This document shows, piece by piece, positions 12,418 through 24,857 of a stretch of DNA of 64,000 bases (the first letter of the stretch is position 1; each line of letters opens with the position of its first letter). Position numbers and translations under genes: made by a program. The notes under the pieces are model-generated. The model saw nothing but the letters and a program-made list of their open reading frames with translations, searched no databases and was not told where the DNA came from. The stretch covers positions 352,001 to 416,000 of the forward strand of contig CAWJTV010000033.1 in assembly GCA_963845755.1 (NCBI GenBank), given 5' to 3'. The DNA is from an uncultured Planctomycetota bacterium. Lineage in GTDB: Bacteria; Planctomycetota; Planctomycetia; Isosphaerales; Isosphaeraceae.

Positions 12418-13452
12418 ATGTCCGACAGCGAACGCATTCACGTCGAGGTCGCGGTCGCCCTCGTGGCGGACGCGAACCAGCGGGTGCTCTTGACCTTGAA
12501 TCCCGGCTGGGGGAGCTTCACGCTCCCCATGACCCGCCGGCGCCGGGGCCGGCAGGGGAACGAGCCGCCGTCGCGGGCGGCCCTCCGCGCCGCGGCCGAG
12601 ACGCTGGGGACTCCGGTTCGTTTGAACGAATCGCACCGCGGCCCCAAGCCACTCATGGCCCGGCTCGAATCGGGCCGGGAACTGGTGGACAAGATCTACG
12701 CCTTCCATGTATTCCACGTCGAGCCTCATCCCGATTTCGCCGACCGACTCCGGATCCCTCAATCGCACCTCTGGCTCTCCCCGCACCTGGTCCTGTCGGG
12801 AGTCTACGAGCCGGTCTCCGAATCGGCGCGATTCATCCTCCGCAACGCACTGGCCGATTTCGACATCCCTGCGCGCTCGCAGAATACCAGCGTCCTGATC
12901 GCGGAGCGCAACGACCCGGCGCGAGGCCGGCTGTTCCTCGTCCGATGGAACCCGAACTGGGGTTACGCCCTGCCATCGAAGCGCTGGGAGCCGCCCGACC
13001 CGGCGAAGGCCGATGACCCATCGGCCACCGCGATGGCCGGCGCCGAGCGCATTGCGCGGGACGAGCTGGGCCTGGAACCGGGCAAGGACGTGACGCTCAC
13101 TCCGGCGAAGTCTCCCGAATACGCAACCCACGGGGTCAGCGTCACCGAGTCGGCTCCCGCGTTCGGAGAAGCGACGGACTATCATCATCGTCTCTTCGAC
13201 GCCCAGCTCCACCATATCGAGAAGCTCCAGTCCACCCAGCCGCTAGCCTGGATCAGCGAGGAGGAGATCCACCACGGCTGGACGTCGGCGTCTCAGGGCG
13301 AACCGGGTTCCCCATCAGGACATGCCGCCCGGGTCTCCCGCACCACCTATGAGATCCTGATGCACCTGGGCCGGATCGGCGAGACCGTTGACCCGGAGCT
13401 CGAGGTCATGGAGAAGTACTGGCTCAACGAGTTCGGCGGTGGCGTGGGATGA
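12418..13452 (+). CDS. protein with two degenerate NUDIX-like domains
   Basis: two similar units: VLLTLNPGWGSFTLP...AALRAAAETLG and FLVRWNPNWGYALP...GAERIARDELGL. Confidence 0.55.
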   Translation: MSDSERIHVEVAVALVADANQRVLLTLNPGWGSFTLPMTRRRRGRQGNEPPSRAALRAAAETLGTPVRLNESHRGPKPLMARLESGRELVDKIYAFHVFHVEPHPDFADRLRIPQSHLWLSPHLVLSGVYEPVSESARFILRNALADFDIPARSQNTSVLIAERNDPARGRLFLVRWNPNWGYALPSKRWEPPDPAKADDPSATAMAGAERIARDELGLEPGKDVTLTPAKSPEYATHGVSVTESAPAFGEATDYHHRLFDAQLHHIEKLQSTQPLAWISEEEIHHGWTSASQGEPGSPSGHAARVSRTTYEILMHLGRIGETVDPELEVMEKYWLNEFGGGVG

Positions 13453-13524
13453 CGAGGACCCGGTGGGGATCGTCATGTGAGAGAGGGTGAAAGTGAGGGT
13501 TCTTCCCGCTGTCGGAGCGTGGCC

Positions 13525-14980
13525 ATGCCCGTTTCCTGGACCATCAAGGCCCGACGTCACCTACGGCAAGGGCTGGCCGAAGCCCTGTGCAGGGAAAGTC
13601 ACAACCTGGGAAACCCCGGGCCTGAGTCGCAGCGATACTTCGGCGTGCTGGAGAGGACCATGGACAATCTCAGCGAGGTTCTCGCGGTCACCTTTCCGGG
13701 AAAGTCGGTCGTCGTGCAGGACCAGGTGATCGGATTCCGGCGCAAAGCAGGCCAGTTCGTCCTGATGGTCGAGGTCTTCGATCCGGGGGATGAATCGTGG
13801 TCGGGTGAGGTCAGTCGGAGCGGCCCGTACGTGGTCAAGATCGGCCCTACGGAGTTCCTGGAGCGGGAGCATCGCGGCTGGGCCTGCTGCCGGCCGCCGG
13901 GCCTGCGGCACGACCTGGTGTTCCTCGACCTCGAAGGCATCCACGAGGACGGGGATCGCGGCCCGCTCATCAGCCTGGTCTATGGCGACGCGCAGCAATT
14001 CCTCGGCGTCGAGACCACGACCACGCTCGAGGCCGCCGCGCTCGAGGCCGTGCGGTTCGGCGTGCCCACGGTCGCCTCGATCGGCTTTGTCATCGTCGCG
14101 CTTTACGAGCGGATCGGACACTTGCTCTACGGCCAGTCCTTCATCGACGACCCGGCGCGGGCGGACTATGCTTTCGACCTCCCCAAGCTGACCGACCGCA
14201 TGGCGCAATGGGATTTCGAACCCGTCGTGCCAGGCCGCCCGCCGCGACGTCAATACGCTGGCTCGGAGCGGCCCCGAGCAGTTCCTCGACCCGATCGACT
14301 ACCTCGACTACGTACGTCAGCTCGTCCCCTGGAAGCTCGCGGACGGTTCGACCCAGGCTCCCACGGCCGACCTGGAGGCGATGCGGCAGCTCGGCGAGCC
14401 CGTGCCGACGCGCGCCGACCTGGTCCCCCGCCTGCTCCGCGGATGTGCCCACGGCGACCTGCACGGGCGCAACGTGCTGGTCGGGATCGTGCGCGAGCAG
14501 GCCCTGTGGCCGACGGTCTTCGACTACGAGGACATGGGCCCGTGCAACCTGATCGGCTGGGACTTCGTCAAGCTCGAGACCGAGCTGAAGATCCGCGCCT
14601 ATCTCGAGGTCTTTGCGGGGGTGGTGCCCAGCGCGTTCGTTCAGAGCGTGCAGAAGTTCGAAGTCGCGCTCGACGCGCGTACGGAGGAGTGTCATGCCAA
14701 CCGAAGCTGGCCGATGGTCGGCGAGGCGGCGACCCCGGCCGATCGGCTCCGCGTCATTCTCTTGGAAGTCCGACGGATGGCCGTGCGCCACCTCGGAGAC
14801 AACGTCGGCCGGCCCAACGACTGGCTGGAACAGTATTACTTCCTGCTGGCGTGTTACGGCATCTGGACGGGCAAGTTCGACAACCTCCAGCTCCGCGAGC
14901 GAATGGGCGCCTTGATCTCGGCCGGAGTCGCCACCGCCCGGCTGAACTGGCCCCGTCTTGAATCACGAATTGCACGTTAG
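13525..14980 (+). CDS. aminoglycoside-phosphotransferase/kinase-like protein (frameshift near 14220)
   Basis: YVVKIG..EREH N-lobe; HGDLHGRNVL catalytic loop; VFDYED; WDFVKLETELK. Confidence 0.75.
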
Positions 14981-15035
14981 CCGCCTCTCCTCACCGCAGA
15001 AACTGCTAACTGAAGGAGAAACGGACCGGACCCAT

Positions 15036-15350
15036 TCACCACAGAGTCACAGCGCGGGCGAGCCGCAACCAACCAATCAAAAGAGACTCACCACAGAGTC
15101 ACAGAGGACACAGAGAGGAATTTTTCGATGCCTTCTGTTGATGCAACCTCTTGTGTCTCGAGACGTTATGAAATCATGCACGGTGTACAAGATTCTCGAA
15201 CTTAGTAGTACAGAGCACACAGAGAAGACCATAACGCATTGTAATTTCATGAGTGTACAGAGTCATGTTTCCTCTCATGACGTCTTTTCGAGAATCAGAA
15301 TTCACAACTGTTTCTGTCTTCTCTGTGCTCTCTGTGGCTCTGTGGTGAGA
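15036..15350. repeat. intergenic inverted-repeat element built from CACAGAG-type units
   Basis: TCACCACAGAGTCACAGAGGACACAGAG (15088-15115) is the near reverse complement of CTCTGTGCTCTCTGTGGCTCTGTGGTGA (15321-15348); extra partial copies at 15036 and 15210. Confidence 0.75.
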
Positions 15351-15386
15351 TATCCGAACCCGATCTGTTCTCCCAAGGACAATCCC

Positions 15387-16262
15387 GTGAGCGCACCAAT
15401 CTCAACCCCGACACTCGAAGCCACCCTCAAGGTCCCGTTCCCGAGCTATCACCGGCCGCTGGCCTGGGCGCATCAGTGGCTTTCGAGCGGCGATCCCGAG
15501 CGCAAGAGGGTCGCGGTCGAGTTGCTCCGGACGCTGTACCAACGGTATGACCACGCCGTGGCGGTCGGCCAGGAGCTGGTCCTGGCCTTGATGGAGAGCG
15601 GCAGGGAGGCTCAGCCCGAGGCCGAGGCGACCCTCCAGGGGATCGATGCCCGGTTTGCCAAGCTGGACGAGGAGCTCCTCTGCCGGTGGGGCCGGTTCTA
15701 CAAGGACCATGGCGACCGGTACCTCGGGCTGCCCTGGCTGGTCACGGAGATCCCGCCCAACCCCGAGGAAGCGCGGCCGTATTACCTCAGGTCACTCGAG
15801 AAGTACGAGGAAGCGTTTCGCATCCGTTCGGGGCATTACCCGGGGATCAACACGGCCACGCTCCAGTTCTTGCTGGGCACGCTGGCCCGGCCGGCGGGCA
15901 CAGCGTCATCCCCTGAGGGCAACGAAGTCGCCAAGGCACAAGCGATCGCGAGCCGGCTACTCGAAGGGCGCGAGAAGTGGTCGGAGTTGACCCCGAAGGA
16001 TCGCACGATCTGGCACCCCGCGACGGCGGCCGAGGCGCACTTGCTGCTCCAGGAATGGGACCCGGCCGCCCGCGAATACCGCGTTGCGATAGAGAACAGC
16101 CGGGGCGCGCTCCGTGACATCGAAAGCATAGGACGTCAGGTTTGTCTGATCGTCATGGGCTGGAGTCGTGTCGGCGTAGCGATCCCCGAGCCGTTCACCC
16201 AGCTCCATCTCTTATTCCCCAGCGTGCCACGGGAACTCATTATCCTATTAACACAATTTTGA
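15387..16262 (+). CDS. TPR-sensor / MAP3K TRAF-binding-like tetratricopeptide protein
   Basis: GTG start at 15387; motifs WGRFYKD, YEEAF...HYPGINTATL, WHPATAAEAHLL, IESIGRQV. Confidence 0.7.
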   Translation: MSAPISTPTLEATLKVPFPSYHRPLAWAHQWLSSGDPERKRVAVELLRTLYQRYDHAVAVGQELVLALMESGREAQPEAEATLQGIDARFAKLDEELLCRWGRFYKDHGDRYLGLPWLVTEIPPNPEEARPYYLRSLEKYEEAFRIRSGHYPGINTATLQFLLGTLARPAGTASSPEGNEVAKAQAIASRLLEGREKWSELTPKDRTIWHPATAAEAHLLLQEWDPAAREYRVAIENSRGALRDIESIGRQVCLIVMGWSRVGVAIPEPFTQLHLLFPSVPRELIILLTQF

Positions 16263-16320
16263 CGATGGGGTCCGCAATGTCGCGCACACCAGGGGAACTC
16301 CGCAGCAGGAGGCCGAGAGG

Positions 16321-17044
16321 TCATCCACGTGAGGCGAACCGCCTGAGGTCATCGGCCATCTGACCGAGACGGTCTGCCAGATCACGGGGCGCTTTGAGAC
16401 ATTGCCGAAGAGTCGCAAGGAGTTGTTCGATCTCCTCGAGGGTGACCTTGACCGCATAGGCCCCGGGGGCCGGGCTCGCGTTGAGGAACTCCCATATGGC
16501 CCTCTTCCAACCTTCGTCACCCAGGAGGGTGCACACCAACGCCAGGTCGGCGGCCGCGTATTCATCTTTGGCCCTCGGGCCGCTGCGCTGTCGCCGGACT
16601 TCGTCTCTGGCCGTCTCCAGCTCCTCGCGCAAGGCCAGGTTCGACAACCTTGGCCGCATCGTCGTGGATCGCCTCAGGCTGGATGTAAACGCGCGCGACC
16701 AGCCGTTGCACCATGTTGTAGGAGTTGATGATCCCATAGCCTGATTCCCGCCGCTCGATTTCGTACCCCGCGTCATAGGCACGGGCGGATTTCTCGAATT
16801 CCCCCCACCTGCGAAAAATCCCGCCTTTTGTCCCGAGGATATAGGCCAACTGGGCGGCGATCTCCATCTCCGAACGACCGAGCCTTTCCCCGGGCTCGCG
16901 GGACTGTTCGAGTCGCTCGAGGGCGGTGCGAAGGTGGCCTTCGGCCTGCTCGATCAACGCGACCGCCCGCGGGAAGTCCCCGCGGTCGCGGGCATTCATC
17001 GCGTCCGACTTCAGTTTTCTTGCCAGATCGATGACATCAGACAT
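16321..17044 (-). CDS. TPR-like helical protein (frameshift near 16640)
   Basis: MSDVIDLARKL...GDFPRAVALIEQA...LGTKGGIFRRWGEFEKSARAYDAG; C-terminus in ORF 16321..16782; start overlaps the stop of the upstream gene. Confidence 0.65.
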
Positions 17045-20000
17045 GATTGAGGCTCCCTCGGGACGCGATGGTATCGAGGACCTTTCCGATTTCGAGGGCG
17101 AGGGCCGCGTACTCGGTCCCGGAATAGTCCTGCAATCGGTCCCGGAGATTCCTGCCGACCTGTTCGAGCGCACCCAGGTGGGGGTCGTTGGGGTCGGATT
17201 CTTGCTTGGTGAGTTTCTCGGTCAATTTGTACCGGCCGTCCAGGTAATACCAGGCCGCCAGCTCATGCTCGATCGCGGCCTTTTTGATGTGCTCGGCGAG
17301 GGACTCGGCGAACAGCACACTCATCTGTCCCGCTTCGGCCACCGCGGGGCCGGCGATCGCCTTGGCCCCGCTCAAGAGGAGCTCCTGGACGGGTCGTCCC
17401 CCCGGCTCTCGGCGCCATTCGATGGAGTCGGCGACCACCTGGTAGGTGCGCCCGGCGAGAGCGTCGCGCCGGTCCCCAGAGACGGCTGATTCGGATCGAA
17501 TTCCGCCAGGCGGTCCTTGAGGTTCTTGAGTTCCTTCAGGCTGAACCGCGTCGGCTTGAAGAAGTCGAAGAGGGCCCGCCTCGCGGGGTCGCCGTCCAGC
17601 TCCACGGCCTTGGCGGGGTCGCCGTCCGGATCGTCCGAGTAGAAGATGAAGATCGGATCGGTGTCATTGACCGCGAGGCGAACCCCGATCTCGAAGAAAA
17701 CGTTGGGGCGCCAGCCGGTCCAGTCGGCGATGCAGACCCTCGTGCAACGGATGGCCGGGTAGAGTCGTTGCTCGACCAGTTGGGGCGACGCGCAATCGAG
17801 CCGTGAGACGAGCCTGGTCGCCTCGCCGAATCGACCTTCGAGCTTGCCCTTCAAGGTTTCGTTGACTTTCTTGCCGTGATCGGGGTCGAACCATTGGAGC
17901 AGCAAGACCTGCTCTTCGGGTTCGCGGATGCCCGGCGTTTCGCCGAGGCGCCTCACCGCATCGAACGCGGGGAGATCGAGGTAGGCATCCGGCTGGAGTC
18001 TGAGGGCATCGTAGCCGGCTTCAAGAGCGTTGGCGATCTGCTTGATCTCCTCTTTTCTGGTGCGAATCGGGATGAGCGAGGCGAGGTTGAAAGGGAGGGG
18101 GTTGCCGCCCGGTTCGTCGTTCGTGAGCGTGATCGTGACGCCCCGCCGGACCGCCGAGCGAATCCCCAGGAACAGCATCACCGCGCAATCGAGCCCCGTG
18201 ATGTCGAACACCGCGAGGTCGCATTCGCAGAGGGCGCGGACGGTCCGCTCGTAGGCCGCCGAAGTCGCGAGCGCCTCGGTGGCCAGGATGACCTCGGGGA
18301 CGGTCTCGATCTCGGGACCCGCGACGGTTCGCGAACCCAATCGCTTCTTGAGCTTCTCGAGCGCCTGCGTGACCCGTTCCTCCTGAGTCATCTCACCGGG
18401 AGGGTCCCCTCTCCCTTTGACGAGGACACACCCGATCCGGCCCGCGAAATCCAACCGAAGCGGAGGGATCTTGCCCAACGCGGCCTCGAAATCCTCGGTG
18501 CTGTACAGACGCTTTCGGGTCCAGTCCTCATCCTGCCGGTCCGGCCGCCACTCCGCACGGAGCGGCTCGCACGCGGCCCAGATGTCGGGGAATCCCTGCG
18601 CGAGGGCCGGCTTCGGTCCGTGTCGGATGATGGCTTGATCCACCTTCATGGGCTTGCCGGTCCGGCCCTCGAAGCGGGTGTGACCGACGATTGATGCGAC
18701 AGCGTCGATGACCTTGCCCTTCTCGCTTGCCGTCAGCTTCGGACGAGGCCATAGGCTCGCCAGTTGCGTCCTGAGGCCTTCGATCAGCCCGACTCTTTCC
18801 GTCAGCCTCGTCTCGTCGGTATCCGCGGCTATCTTGCCTTCGCGGTCGAAGATGCGGAAGTGGAGCAACTGATTCACGGCGGCTACGACGATCAGATTCT
18901 TACCCTCGCTCGGGATGTCTCGTGCGTCATTCACCGAGGACATCAATCGTAGGTCGTACCCCTCGAAGCGGATGACATACCCCTTGAGCGTCTTCACCGG
19001 CTCCTCGATCCGACCGGGCTTGTCCACGAGGAGGAACCTCTTCTTGTTGTAGAGGTACGCGGTGATCAGTCTGTTGAGGACGGAAGCCTGCGGGCTGAAT
19101 AACGCCTCCTCGGAACTGTTCAGCCAGATCGTCCCCATCTTGCGCGGGCGTAGGTTCGCGTCCAGCGCCGGGCGCGATCTCGCTCGCCGCCGCCTTGTAC
19201 GCATCGGCGCGGGCCTGCGGCGAGCCACCCTTCTCCTCGACCTCCTTGAGCCGATCAGCGACTTTGCTGAGGGAATGTTTACTCACCTTATTGATCACAT
19301 CGCCATGTTTAAAATCCATAATGCAGAGCCGCATGAGATCGGTGAGCCCACCGTCGCCGCTCCCGGACAGGAACCAGGACCCGATGGACTCGGCCTCGAG
19401 TCCGTCGAGGCGCGTGTCGGTCCAGTAGCCGTCGGACGCCTCCGTGTCGTCCCTGCCGAAGCCGACCGCCAGGATGACGACGTCGAACTCCCGTCGGTCT
19501 TCCCCGCCAACCTGGACGAAGGGCCTCTTACCGGCGACACCGACTTTGATCTCTTTGCAATCACATCGAGGATGGGGCAACCTCTGACCCAGGCGGGATC
19601 GAAGCCGATCCCACTCTTTGTCGAGTTGCTCGACGACTTCCACCGCGTTTTTCGCACTCCAGGGCAATATCGGCACGTCGGCCTGATCGCCCAGCTCGGT
19701 GCTGTAGGGCCAGTCGTAGATATATGGGTGGATATATCGCTTATCGCACCCCCTCTGGAGCCGCATGGTATCCCCGAGCTCCTCGAACACCTGGCATTCT
19801 CGAACGCCCCGCACGGCCGCGGCGGCGGCGGCCGTCATCCCGGCAATCCCGCCCCCGATCACGGCAACCCGGCTCTGGCCGGACAGGATGCCGCCCTTCG
19901 CCAGGGAGTTGACCAGGTTCAGTGCGCGGACCTGCTGGAAGTAGACGGTCACATACCTCGCGAAACAACCCAGGACGTAGATCCCCGGTTTACCGGGTAC

Positions 20001-20066
20001 TCGCATCAGTCGGAGCAGCTCGGTCCGGTGCTCGTCATCGGTCTGAGGTTCCTTGGGGAATGACAT
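17037..20066 (-). CDS. multidomain protein: FAD/NAD-dependent oxidoreductase plus two nucleoside 2-deoxyribosyltransferase/TIR-like domains (two frameshifts)
   Basis: VAVIGGGIAG, FDVVILAVGFG, SGSGDGGLTD; C-terminal CDLAVFDITG..AVMLFLGIR..LPFNL and VCIADWTGWRPNVFFEIGVRLA; GGAGGG RBS before ATG 20066. Confidence 0.7.
18666..18971. mobile_element. MITE-like element inserted in frame, with terminal inverted repeats and target-site duplication
   Basis: direct repeat CCCTCGAAGCGG at 18666-18677 and 18960-18971; inner ends GTGTGACCGACGATTGATG vs reverse complement GTACGACCTACGATTGATG (16/19 identical); offset 294 bp. Confidence 0.8.
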
Positions 20067-20435
20067 CCCTCCCTCCACTTCGACATCGAACCTGGAGAAA
20101 CCGGTCGGCCGAGTCGGTCGCGACCCCGGCTCGGTCGAGGGTTCCCAGGTGGGAAAAGACCGAACGCGGGACTGAGACAGGCTGGAAGGAACGGGACAGG
20201 ATGGGTTGTTCGACGGCATGTCCCCGACGCCTCTGCGTTTTCATCCCGGTTCACGCCATGCCTGAAGGATCAGTCTACAAGGTCGATCAGGCCAAGTCCA
20301 TCGCGCGGGGGCCGCATCCCGAGAAATCCGCAAGTGCATTCGAATCGCGATGGGGAAGGTGTACGATGAGCACGTGGCCGCCCCATGCCGAGGGGTGACT
20401 TCGATGCCCGTATCGCGTCGATAACCGGAGGTCCC

Positions 20436-21530
20436 ATGAGTCCCGAAGTCGAGATGACTCAGCCGGGTCGGAGCCGACCTGCCGCACCGATTCCGCTGGT
20501 AGATCGACCCATGGTCGAAGACACGGACATGGTTGAGACGCCCGACGAAATGGCGAATTGGCCGGCGTTGGTCGATCGTCTTCGGCGCTGCAGCGAACTG
20601 ATCAGCCCGGTCTTCCACGATCGCGATGCCGAGGCCAAGGATCACCAGAGATACCATCGACTCCTCACCACCCTGGCTGCCGTCTTCGGTACAGGCGCCG
20701 TCCTGTTCGCGATCCTGCAACTGGCGTATCCGGATCTGCTCGGTGGCACGACCCTGGAGGTCGTCGAGGTCGTGGCCGTGGTCGCGGCGCTCGCCGCGGT
20801 GGTGATGGGCGTGATCTCGGGCCGGCAAAGTCGGTGGCTACTCGAGCGGCATAAGGCCGAGCGGCTCCGGCTGGCCAAGTTCCGGTTCCTGATCGACCCG
20901 GCAACCTGGAGTGACCGCCCGGAGGACGTCGAGCATCGGGTCGCGGCCCTCCGCGCCGAGGTTGACCGCATTCAATCAATTACGTCACGCCAGTTCCGAG
21001 AGTGGACCGAGCAGGAAGATGTGCATCTGGAACCGCATCAGCGGCAAGACCAGCCCACCGGGGAAACGCGCGACCAACTGGTCGACTACTATCGGACCAA
21101 ACGCCTGTTGTTCCAACGCGATATCTTCCGCAGCCGGGCCAAGCGGCACGATCGATGGGATCGTGACAGCCGTCGCCTCGGGCCAATCCTGTTCCTCGGC
21201 AGTGTGTCCGCAGTCCTGGTCCACTTCGGGATCGACCTGTATAACCGGCGGAAGGGGTACAATGTGGACACCACGCCATTAATCCTGCTGGCCGCGGGCT
21301 TGCCCGTGGCCGGTGCCGGCATCCGCACCCTGCGCACGGCGTACGAGTTTGCTCGAAACACCAGTCGCTATCGCGCAAAGTCCGTCGCGCTGGATCGACT
21401 TGACCACATTCTTAAGGAAGAGCAGGATCCTCAGTCAGAGATTCGTTTGTTGGGGTACTCGGAAGAGCTTCTGGAATTCGAGCATCATGAATGGTGCCGG
21501 CTCATGATCGAGGCGGAGTGGCTTCCGTGA
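20436..21530 (+). CDS. SLATT/DUF4231-like membrane protein (two 2-TM units)
   Basis: GGAGG RBS; TM pair then RWLLERHKAERLR; YYRTKRLLFQRDIF; second TM pair then RYRA...EELLEFEHHEWCRLM. Confidence 0.65.
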   Translation: MSPEVEMTQPGRSRPAAPIPLVDRPMVEDTDMVETPDEMANWPALVDRLRRCSELISPVFHDRDAEAKDHQRYHRLLTTLAAVFGTGAVLFAILQLAYPDLLGGTTLEVVEVVAVVAALAAVVMGVISGRQSRWLLERHKAERLRLAKFRFLIDPATWSDRPEDVEHRVAALRAEVDRIQSITSRQFREWTEQEDVHLEPHQRQDQPTGETRDQLVDYYRTKRLLFQRDIFRSRAKRHDRWDRDSRRLGPILFLGSVSAVLVHFGIDLYNRRKGYNVDTTPLILLAAGLPVAGAGIRTLRTAYEFARNTSRYRAKSVALDRLDHILKEEQDPQSEIRLLGYSEELLEFEHHEWCRLMIEAEWLP

Positions 21531-21584
21531 GACGCACGGGGTATCGAGTTTGAGCGATTTCGCTCAACCAGAAAGCGGTGGACC

Positions 21585-21872
21585 TTGACATACAGACCTC
21601 GTCCGATCGATACGATGCAAGTCGAACTGACGCCCGAGCTCCTCCAACTCGTGGAACGATTGGCTGAGAACGTCCATGACGTCTGGGCAGCCAACCGGCT
21701 GGCGGCAGGCTGGAGACTCGGCCCCAGCCGGGATGGCGACCTCAAGCAGACCCCCTTGCTCGTGCCGTACGCGGAACTGCCCGAGTCGGAGAAGCACTAC
21801 GATCGCGACCTGGCACTGGCGACCCTCAAGGCGATCCTGGCGCTGGGATATCAGATCGAGCCAATAAAATGA
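21585..21872 (+). CDS. stand-alone RyR (ryanodine receptor repeat) domain protein
   Basis: YRPRPIDT..V.L...L..LVERLAENVHDVWA..R...GW..GP.RD...K..PLLVPYAELPESEK.YDR...TLKAILALGY. Confidence 0.9.
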   Translation: MTYRPRPIDTMQVELTPELLQLVERLAENVHDVWAANRLAAGWRLGPSRDGDLKQTPLLVPYAELPESEKHYDRDLALATLKAILALGYQIEPIK

Positions 21873-22723: not shown

Positions 22724-24857
22724 TCATTCGCGTGAGACGAGGATGACCACGGTGCGACCCGCCACGGTGTGGGTACTGCCGGCGACGAGCGGCTCTTGAC
22801 CGGCCTCGACGCTGTCCAGGGGCGATGGCTGGCTCGTATCCACGGACCGGTACCAGCGCCGACCGGGGATCGGCATGATGTCGAACTCCAGCGGCTCCCA
22901 GTACGTGTTCATCATGACGTGGAGGTCCTCGCCGCCGGTAAGGCCCCCCAGCGTGAAAGCCAGGGCTCGGGCGTCGGGGTCGTCCCAGCCCGGCTGGCCG
23001 AGCTTGGTGCCGTGCCAGGTCACGTCGGCCACGCCCCGCGCGTCTTTCTGGCCCGTGTAGAACTCCGGCAGGGAGAGCGTGGAGTGCGCCTTGCGGAAGG
23101 CAATCAGGCGGGTCCAGAACCGGAGCAGACCCGCATTCGCCCCAGGGAGATTCCAGTCGAACCAGCTCACGACATTGTCCTGGCAGTAGGCGTTGTTGTT
23201 CCCGCCCTGGGTGCGCCCGACCTCATCACCCATCACGAACATCGGCAAGCCCCGCGAGAGCATCAGGATCGCGGCGAAGTTCTTGATCTGGCAGACCCGC
23301 AGCGCCTGGATCGCCGGATCGGTCGTGTCGCCCTCGGCCCCGCAATTCCAGCTCGAATTGTCGTTGTTGCCATCGCGGTTGTCCTCGCCGTTGGCCTCGT
23401 TGTGCTTCTCGTTGTAGGAGACGAGGTCGTTGAGCGTGAAACCATCGTGGCAGGTGACGAAATTGATGCTATTGATCGGTAAATGCCCGCGCGACTGGTA
23501 CAGATCCGGGCTGCCGGCGATCCGCGTCGCGACCGCTCCCACGAGGCCCGGATCCCCCTTGACGAACTTGCGAATCGTGTCGCGGTACGAGCCGTTCCAC
23601 TCCGACCATCGGTAGCCCGGGTAATGGCCAACCTCGTAGGCCCCGTAGGCATCCCAGGCTTCCGCGATGATCCGGCTGTCTGACAGCGTATCCGATAATT
23701 CGATGTCCCAGATCACCGGCGGATTGGTCAGGATCGAGCCGTCCTCGCCGCGCGTCAATACGGTCCCCTCGTCGAAGCGAAAGCCGTTGACGTGCATCGC
23801 GTCGACCCAGTACTCGAGCGACTCCACGATCAACTTCCGACCGATCGGATGGTTGCACTGCAAGGTATTCCCGCACCCCGTGTAATCGAAATAAAACTGA
23901 CCATTCCCCGGCACGAGGTAGTAGTAATTGCTGTTGTCCAGGCCCTTGTAGCAATAGATCGGGCCGTCCTGATTCCCCTCATCCGTGTGGTTGAACACCA
24001 CGTCGAGGAACACCTGGATTCCCGCCCGATGCAACGCCTTGACCATATCGCGGAACTCGCGGACATGAGCCGCCCTCTGGGGGTTCGTGCAATACCCCGA
24101 GTGCGGGGCGAAGAAGCCCATCGTGCTGTATCCCCAGTAGTTCCTCAGGGGAGTGCCGTTGAATTCGCGCAAGACGTCGGTCTCGTCGAATTCGTGGACC
24201 GGCAGCAGCTCGACGGCCGTCACCCCGAGCGCCTTCAAGTAGGGGATCTTCTCGATCACACCGCTGAACTTCCCGGGATGTTGAACCTGGGCGCCGGGCG
24301 ATTGGGTGAATCCGCGGCACGTGCATCTCGTAGATGATCCGGGGCTCGCTCATGGGAGGATGAAGGGGCTGATCTCCCTCCCAATCGTAGCCGTCCTGGA
24401 CATCGATGATCCCGGTCCGGAGGGACGTTGCCAGGTTGTCGCCCGGTACGCAGGCGGCCCCGCGGTTCCAGAGGCGCTTGGTCATGCCCCGGGAGTAAGG
24501 GTCGATGAGGACCTTCTGGACGTCGAACCGCTGTCCCGCCGCGAGATCGTGCGGTCCGTCAACCCGGTAGCCATAGAACACCCCGGGTTTCAGCCCGCGC
24601 ACGTACGCGTGCCAGATCACGAATGACCTGTTGACCAGGGGGTCGAGCGGAATCGTCTGGATCGGCTGGGGATCGTCGTACTTCGCGAAGAGCAAGAGTT
24701 GGACGGCGGTCGCGTGCTCGCTGAAGAGGGCGAAGTTCACCCCGTCACGGTCCGGTGTGGCACCCAGCGGGTGATTCGCTCCCGGTTCGACCGAGTACGC
24801 GATCGAGGCGTCTTGACGATTCACGGGCGGTTCCTTGGTTACGGTGAGGACTGACAT
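22724..24857 (-). CDS. glgX: glycogen debranching enzyme / isoamylase (GH13), frameshifts near 24260-24350
   Basis: HPLGATPD..GVNFALFS; VELLPVHEF; NYWGYST; DVVFNHT; GFRFD; IAEAWD; NFVTCHDGFTL; WNCG.EG; QGGNNNAYCQDN. Confidence 0.92.

Follow-up and report, generated by a model that had tools for sequence, protein, structure and literature searches.

Inteins are selfish DNA that persists in frame within proteins and is harmless at the protein level, with junctions marked by an N-terminal Cys or Ser, a C-terminal His-Asn, and Cys, Ser or Thr as the next residue. Rickettsia palindromic elements (RPEs) are RNA-hairpin palindromes, for which no transposase is known. In the sections of PMC10969869 and PMC3184786 that deal with them, RPEs are about 105-150 bp long and present in 44 copies, nearly half of them in ORFs, and the former source refers to Ogata (2000, 2002) for the repeat being inserted in frame in unrelated genes and adding a conserved peptide. 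Other repeats fused to ORFs are the MITEs ERIC and RU-1 to RU-3 (in part of PMC2759123) and BOX, BRE and the Anabaena MITEs (PMC3184786, a review that, in its passage on the subject, calls the stability of MITE-ORF fusions unknown). Bacterial MITEs are about 90% intergenic, as stated in the relevant portion of PMC11602168. Insertion sequences (ISs) of the ISKra4 / p-MULT 4 group, which occur in Planctomycetes, have 18-39-bp inverted repeats (IRs) with terminal C and 8-9-bp direct repeats (DRs), according to the parts of PMC3942029 devoted to the group, where the word MITE is absent.

The element found in our window (the whole stretch of DNA analysed, 64,000 nucleotides) resembles RPEs in being lineage-restricted, inserted in frame in unrelated genes and adding a conserved peptide. 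To this extent the RPE analogy drawn in the preliminary description stands, while it fails in size (286 bp), in the host (Isosphaeraceae, a family of soil bacteria, rather than Rickettsia), in the RNA palindrome (fold z -1.5) and in the lack of an Rfam match. The element further differs from RPEs in being in frame in 104 of 109 copies, in its spread over 1,823 protein clusters, in its domain-sized predicted fold, and in having a transposase partner with identical ends and 8-bp target-site duplications (TSDs). Like ERIC/RU, BOX, BRE and the Anabaena MITEs, it is bounded by terminal inverted repeats (TIRs), non-autonomous, ORF-carrying and capable of in-frame fusion, but those are mainly intergenic, whereas this element is in frame as a rule and under purifying selection across species. 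As in the case of inteins, it persists in frame as an apparently harmless protein part; unlike them, it has no splicing motifs, homing endonuclease or fixed target, gave no Hint match in the fold searches or in Pfam on 33 members, and would spread by DDE transposition and stay in the protein. The partner IS fits the ISKra4 family by passing the family model and by its IR and DR lengths, whereas the element itself has no transposase. The open literature searched contained no description of this element family or of a domain-encoding ISKra4 MITE; the spread of a domain by a frame-neutral MITE is little described in bacteria.

The window locus and its host gene

The features of the locus are as follows.

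18676..18961, minus strand: MITE with ISKra4-type ends, 286 bp, a length common to 79 of the 109 near-complete copies
18676..18696, plus strand: 21-bp TIR, 3' end on the gene strand, encoding the last residues SIVGHT; all positions agree with either end of a 1,421-bp IS (21/21)
18941..18961, minus strand: 21-bp TIR, 5' end on the gene strand, encoding GYDLRLM, the first domain strand; 18/21 identical to the IS end
18668..18675, no strand: 8-bp TSD, gene-downstream copy, identical to 18962-18969
18962..18969, no strand: 8-bp TSD, gene-upstream copy, identical to 18668-18675
18677..18961, minus strand: inserted domain, 95 codons, modelled with pLDDT 91.5 and pTM 0.82 as four strands and two helices
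17372..19228, minus strand: insert-bearing ORF, C-terminal half of the host gene (P0004, 588 aa); in its orthologs the whole gene encodes one protein of about 900 aa
19170..20066, minus strand: N-terminal half of the host, an LmuA-like FAD/NAD-binding oxidoreductase in a frame different from that of the insert part (PADLOC LmuA, E 4e-74)
17043..17456, minus strand: C-terminal tail of the host, again in another frame

The anatomy proposed in the preliminary description was recovered. The 12-mer is found at 18666-18677 and 18960-18971 with a spacing of 294 bp, and consists of the 8-bp duplication and four further bases, the terminal G/C of the TIRs being matched by host bases. The imperfect TIRs, initially given as a 16/19 core, are correct, and the full arms (18676-18696 and 18941-18961) pair at 18 of 21 positions. 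The boundaries 18676-18961 likewise hold, with the 8-bp duplication at the two positions listed; the insert is open on the minus strand and yields the predicted RFEG...RFEG, and no transposase is present in its 286 bp, similarity to the IS being restricted to the TIRs. The locus thus has the features of a MITE, namely TIRs, an 8/8 TSD, a length of 286 bp and no transposase, and since 286+8 nucleotides make 98 codons, the host frame survives the insertion. The repeats exceed chance: one TIR equals both IS ends, and the flank identity of other copies peaks only at 8 bp. Moreover, short-read contigs from a public soil run match 18683-19025 without differences and bridge the junction at 18961, which rules out long-read sequencing errors as the source of the insert.

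The host gene runs from 20066 to about 17040 and combines an LmuA-like FAD half, with weak Pfam matches to NAD_binding_8 and DAO, and a TIR-like half, with a weak match to a TIR effector model (here a protein model, not the repeat). The LmuA and TIR effector matches agree with the earlier designation of the host as a putative conflict effector. In the assembly the gene is broken by two frameshifts, near 19170-19230, where the change of frame is visible in comparison with three orthologs, and near 17450, where the break is likely an assembly error, since one short-read contig has an extra base behind this position. As the former frameshift lies upstream of the insert, the window copy may go untranslated. 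Genes apparently split by frameshifts are seen at 13477-14980, 17450, 19170-19230 and 22724-24857, and the assembly likely carries indel errors, because one of these several breaks is contradicted by short reads. The neighbours of the host at 12418-21872 are also of the conflict type, with NUDIX, TCAD9 (frameshifted), two TPR-S, SLATT and RyR domains. The conflict-gene setting is incidental, since most hosts of the element are transporters, repeat proteins and enzymes.

Orthologs of the window host (42 kept out of 48, the six weakest being left out) provided the empty sites that the preliminary description had suggested looking for: none of the 42 contains the insert. In the 34 orthologs with both flanks placed, the gap at the insert site ranges from -7 to +4 residues, and in 11 it is exactly -3, that is, the duplicated tripeptide is present once.

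Partner insertion sequence and spread of the element

When the own genome (14.27 Mb in 49 contigs, 88% complete) was scanned for the TIR, the IS with matching ends that the preliminary description had proposed to search for was found. It is a 1,421-bp ISKra4 IS whose three copies differ by 0 and 2 bases, and both of its ends are identical to the 18676 end of the element over 21 bases. The flanks of its copies are duplicated over 8 bp (8/8, 7/8 and 8/8), and its 427-aa ORF scores just above the cut-off of the ISKra4 transposase model NF033572 (205.8 bits vs 205); the 21-bp IRs and 8-bp duplications are likewise of ISKra4 type, and the IS is intact in this genome. The suggested origin as an IS derivative thus applies to the ends of the element (21/21 and 18/21), while the 244 bp between them do not resemble the IS. 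Among relatives, five ISs of 1,419-1,436 bp have such ends, and 8/8 duplications are seen in four such ISs, the own copy included. A close transposase (E <= 1e-100) was found in only 20 of 120 genomes of the family, compared with 61 of 120 for the domain, a gap that tells against the explanation favoured below.

Ends of this type also bound other sequences. A TIR-bounded 642-bp stretch (L148:1501-2142, G035:C5) contains an open ORF that by eye resembles a TIR/SEFIR domain, with a TSD of 1/8, which suggests that such ends are able to capture pieces of genes. Further short elements of 148-294 bp (L156, L159, L161, L168, L169, L164) share the TIRs, have unrelated interiors and mostly contain stops in the TIR frames; in L164 (160 bp, TSD 6/8) the TIR frame is open on both strands and the length is frame-preserving. 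Another repeated end, with four mismatches to the TIR, occurs eight times on G000:C13, C19, C20, C21, C22 and C40, and its pairing at about 27 kb on C19 and C20 marks a different, larger mobile element. A TIR-like match at G000:C33:512817 is not a copy.

Seven loci of the element were found in the own genome. Their hosts include a HEAT-repeat-like protein, WD40 proteins, a transporter in the membrane and a membrane protein; one copy is frameshifted, and the one in the membrane protein is a longer variant of 361 bp that keeps the frame and has a TSD of 7/8. The domain profile matches 61 of 120 genomes of the same family (31 of 53 genera, 1-15 matches per genome) and none of 300 genomes from other families of the phylum, and named domain-bearing records are labelled Isosphaeraceae. 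One kinase-WD40 protein with the domain (P0046) is labelled Mycolicibacterium (MAG, 2.5-kb contig); it is probably mis-binned, and would otherwise be the only copy seen outside the family. A full HMMER search returned 1,823 protein clusters (50% identity) at E <= 0.001 and 1,305 at 1e-10, the best 150 of the 1,823 being inspected and some clusters being fragments; searches of genome collections with a single protein as query gave only 1 and 3 loci.

As had been expected, unrelated genes harbour further copies, with separate TSDs and the frame kept. Hosts comprise transporters, kinases, sigma factors and peptidases, distributed over the cytoplasm, membrane and periplasm. Of 104 host ORFs 65 were scanned, and 45 of these have a Pfam family, among them AcrB, MFS, ABC, KUP, Nramp and HlyD for transport, as well as signal peptidase, BacA, cytochrome b/c, ResB, kinase-WD40, TPR, T6SS VipA and VasJ, patatin and others. 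Among the hosts taken from databases there are also sigma factors, NuoF-like proteins, Cas8a1, acetate-CoA ligase (P0027), a phosphodiesterase (P0075) and an RNA-polymerase-beta-like protein. L032 (G000:C13:137133-137493), L026, L107, L108 and L117 comprise a subtype with a GxDLRLMSW start, a length of 286-289 bp and a slightly different interior, as well as the 361-bp long form.

For the analysis of insertion sites, 125 distinct hits were taken from L001-L131, of which 109 near-complete copies were counted and 16 partial or nested pieces excluded. In 25 of the 109 copies, 7-8 of the eight TSD bases are kept, against 0.14% in a control with mismatched flanks, and flank identity reaches 0.53 when a duplication of 8 bp is assumed, vs 0.23-0.31 for lengths 3-7 and 9-12. 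The 25 well-kept TSDs represent 24 different sequences that share no strong consensus. Copies with better preserved TIRs also tend to have better preserved TSDs (Spearman 0.48, n=109). Four or fewer TSD matches are seen in 60 of the 109 copies, which is expected with age but does not amount to proof copy by copy. At the protein level, 71 of 198 ungapped copies have a two-residue flank duplication (control 0.5%), and 163 of the 198 lie internally in their protein.

The 99 copies with usable flanks occupy 86 distinct sites, some of them common to 3-4 genomes. Nested copies are present in P0006, P0199 and P0201, the profile matches in P0006 spanning 2-68, 1-95 and 69-95. Pairwise identity among 67 copies has a median of 66% and reaches 90% at most, and the best sister of the window copy in its own genome (88% complete) is at most 73% identical; hence there has been no recent burst. 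Some copies share an ORF, lie next to or inside one another, or are separated by only a few kb (L045, L085, L101, L103, L114, L120, L124; G115:C295; G090:C8), which suggests clustering above what 1-15 copies per genome would give, through local hopping or tolerant hosts. In AcrB-family hosts (L046, L077, L089, L025, L110, L112), two or three insert positions fall within about 50 residues, suggesting one tolerant region struck repeatedly.

Reading frame, selection and possible explanations

The length plus 8 is divisible by three in 102 of the 109 copies, and 104 can be read without a stop from the host ORF upstream across the element, which bears out the frame-keeping length proposed initially; part of the copy set comes from a protein search and is biased toward open copies, while among the 67 loci from the DNA search, which ignores frame, 63 are open in the host ORF. 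The five non-open copies have a small frameshift, located inside the element or at its end; three of them lie in long ORFs in sense orientation, and two have short flanks. None of 67 ungapped copies contains a stop in the coding frame, while each of the other five frames carries stops in 55-67 of the 67, so that only one of the six insertion modes would be harmless.

We consider it likely that the element is a selfish, non-splicing passenger, transposed in trans, frame-neutral by its length, tolerated because it is folded, and locked by host selection. An ISKra4 DDE transposase supplied in trans would bind the 21-bp TIRs and insert the element with an 8-bp duplication; the ends and the duplication are observed, the catalysis is presumed. 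Only sense, in-phase insertions leave the gene intact, given that 286+8 is a multiple of three and just one of the six frames is open, and other insertions would be purged or decay. Tolerant loops and linkers would accept the compact 95-aa domain without splicing, judging from its predicted fold and presumed translation. Once in frame, the copy would be locked, because a stop, frameshift or misfolding change would harm the host protein; for the same reason the insert is under purifying selection and inherited across species, as seen from omega and from sites common to several genomes. Copies with intact TIRs could move again, also into other copies. The element would thus behave as an intein that never splices.

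Substitution patterns are consistent with such locking. Pairwise comparisons give a dN/dS of 0.45 for the coding frame vs 1.0-1.3 for shifted frames (0.56 for the antisense frame that shares codon positions). Omega under the GY94 codon model is 0.35, the tree being star-like, with only 11-13% of its length in internal branches. Selection after insertion was gauged with 11 same-site pairs in homologous hosts, two of which (L005/L078 and L110/L089) may have arisen by separate insertion events. In the 11 pairs omega is 0.40 (dS 0.61) for the insert and 0.33 (dS 0.63) for the host flanks. As omega is close to that of the host at similar dS, the insert is kept as protein after landing. The same proximity would be expected if the MITE, with the same origin, encoded a domain with a host-selected function of its own (binding, oligomerisation or stabilisation) and acted as a domain-shuffling device, and several sites common to 3-4 genomes, invariant P, L, R and F positions with a conserved HFRIFD motif, and 2-6 domain hits in 78 of 239 proteins (from a score-ranked list favouring such proteins) point the same way. 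Still, we regard a function of this kind as unlikely, since the hosts are unrelated and spread over all three compartments, none of the 42 orthologs of the window host has the insert, no family, fold or ligand offers a clue, and omega near 0.4 may be attained by stability alone.

The globular appearance of the segment noticed at the outset is reproduced by AlphaFold2, which with 33 sequences predicts one compact domain (scores as listed above); modelled inside the host fragment, which lacks the N-terminal half, the insert retains the same strands and helices (pLDDT 87-95) between flanks with pLDDT <50. Foldseek against PDB gave no match to the model at E <= 0.001. The best VIA-align hit, a YTH domain (Z 5.4, rmsd 3.6 over 84 residues), lies within background. 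PDB sequences reached E 0.02 at best, and the ESM Atlas gave no usable match, and later one unnamed cluster at 0.80. Two weak single Pfam matches among 33 members, CHASE8 and Stimulus_sens_1, are read as a common beta-hairpin and not as an origin, and the insert has no match in NCBIfam or PADLOC. The modelled fold is possibly new, which the lack of fold matches does not prove.

Removal of the insert after transcription or translation, by a self-splicing RNA or an intein-like reaction, would also make it harmless, and could be reconciled with TIRs able to close the RNA into a long hairpin and with insertion into conserved housekeeping-type proteins. This is very improbable: the RNA fold is not better than that of shuffled sequences (z -1.5), Rfam has no match at E <= 1, and protein-level purifying selection together with the absence of stops argues for translation. 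Moreover, the modelled domain consists of four strands and two helices, a Hint or intein match appeared neither in Pfam on the 33 members nor in the PDB sequence and fold searches, and most copies start with Gly, not Cys or Ser, and end with His-Thr, not His-Asn, followed mostly by Pro, Leu or Arg. Finally, an ordinary mobile domain spread by recombination, with coincidental TIRs and TSD, for which only the decayed ends of old copies could speak, is ruled out by the 21/21 identity to the IS ends, a TSD signal that is confined to 8 bp and rises with TIR integrity, the fixed length, nesting, and empty ortholog sites.

Probable domain insertion by transposition

In all 109 copies the fraction of the IS base at TIR position 11 is 0.0, and the change in the left TIR replaces Arg in the first strand by Leu or a different residue; the left TIR is a dual-use sequence. 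It is rather unlikely that the domain, possibly of a new fold, is a functional module spread among well over 1,000 proteins in a natural domain-insertion scan, with its TIR adapted for folding. If this were true, the first strand and last helix of the module would be encoded in transposase binding sites, and the change at TIR position 11 from Arg to a hydrophobic residue would be the adaptation.

The element offers a direct and countable bacterial case of the birth and insertion of a domain by transposition, in which donor ends, TSDs, empty sites and selection are all visible. It makes testable whether in-frame repeat insertions stay and become real protein parts, a question raised in passages of PMC10969869 and PMC3184786. 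The many sites at which it has landed naturally show where transporters, enzymes and sigma factors tolerate an insertion, and its 95-aa domain could serve as a scaffold for insertions. The element also accounts for an unannotated domain in the 1,823 protein clusters.
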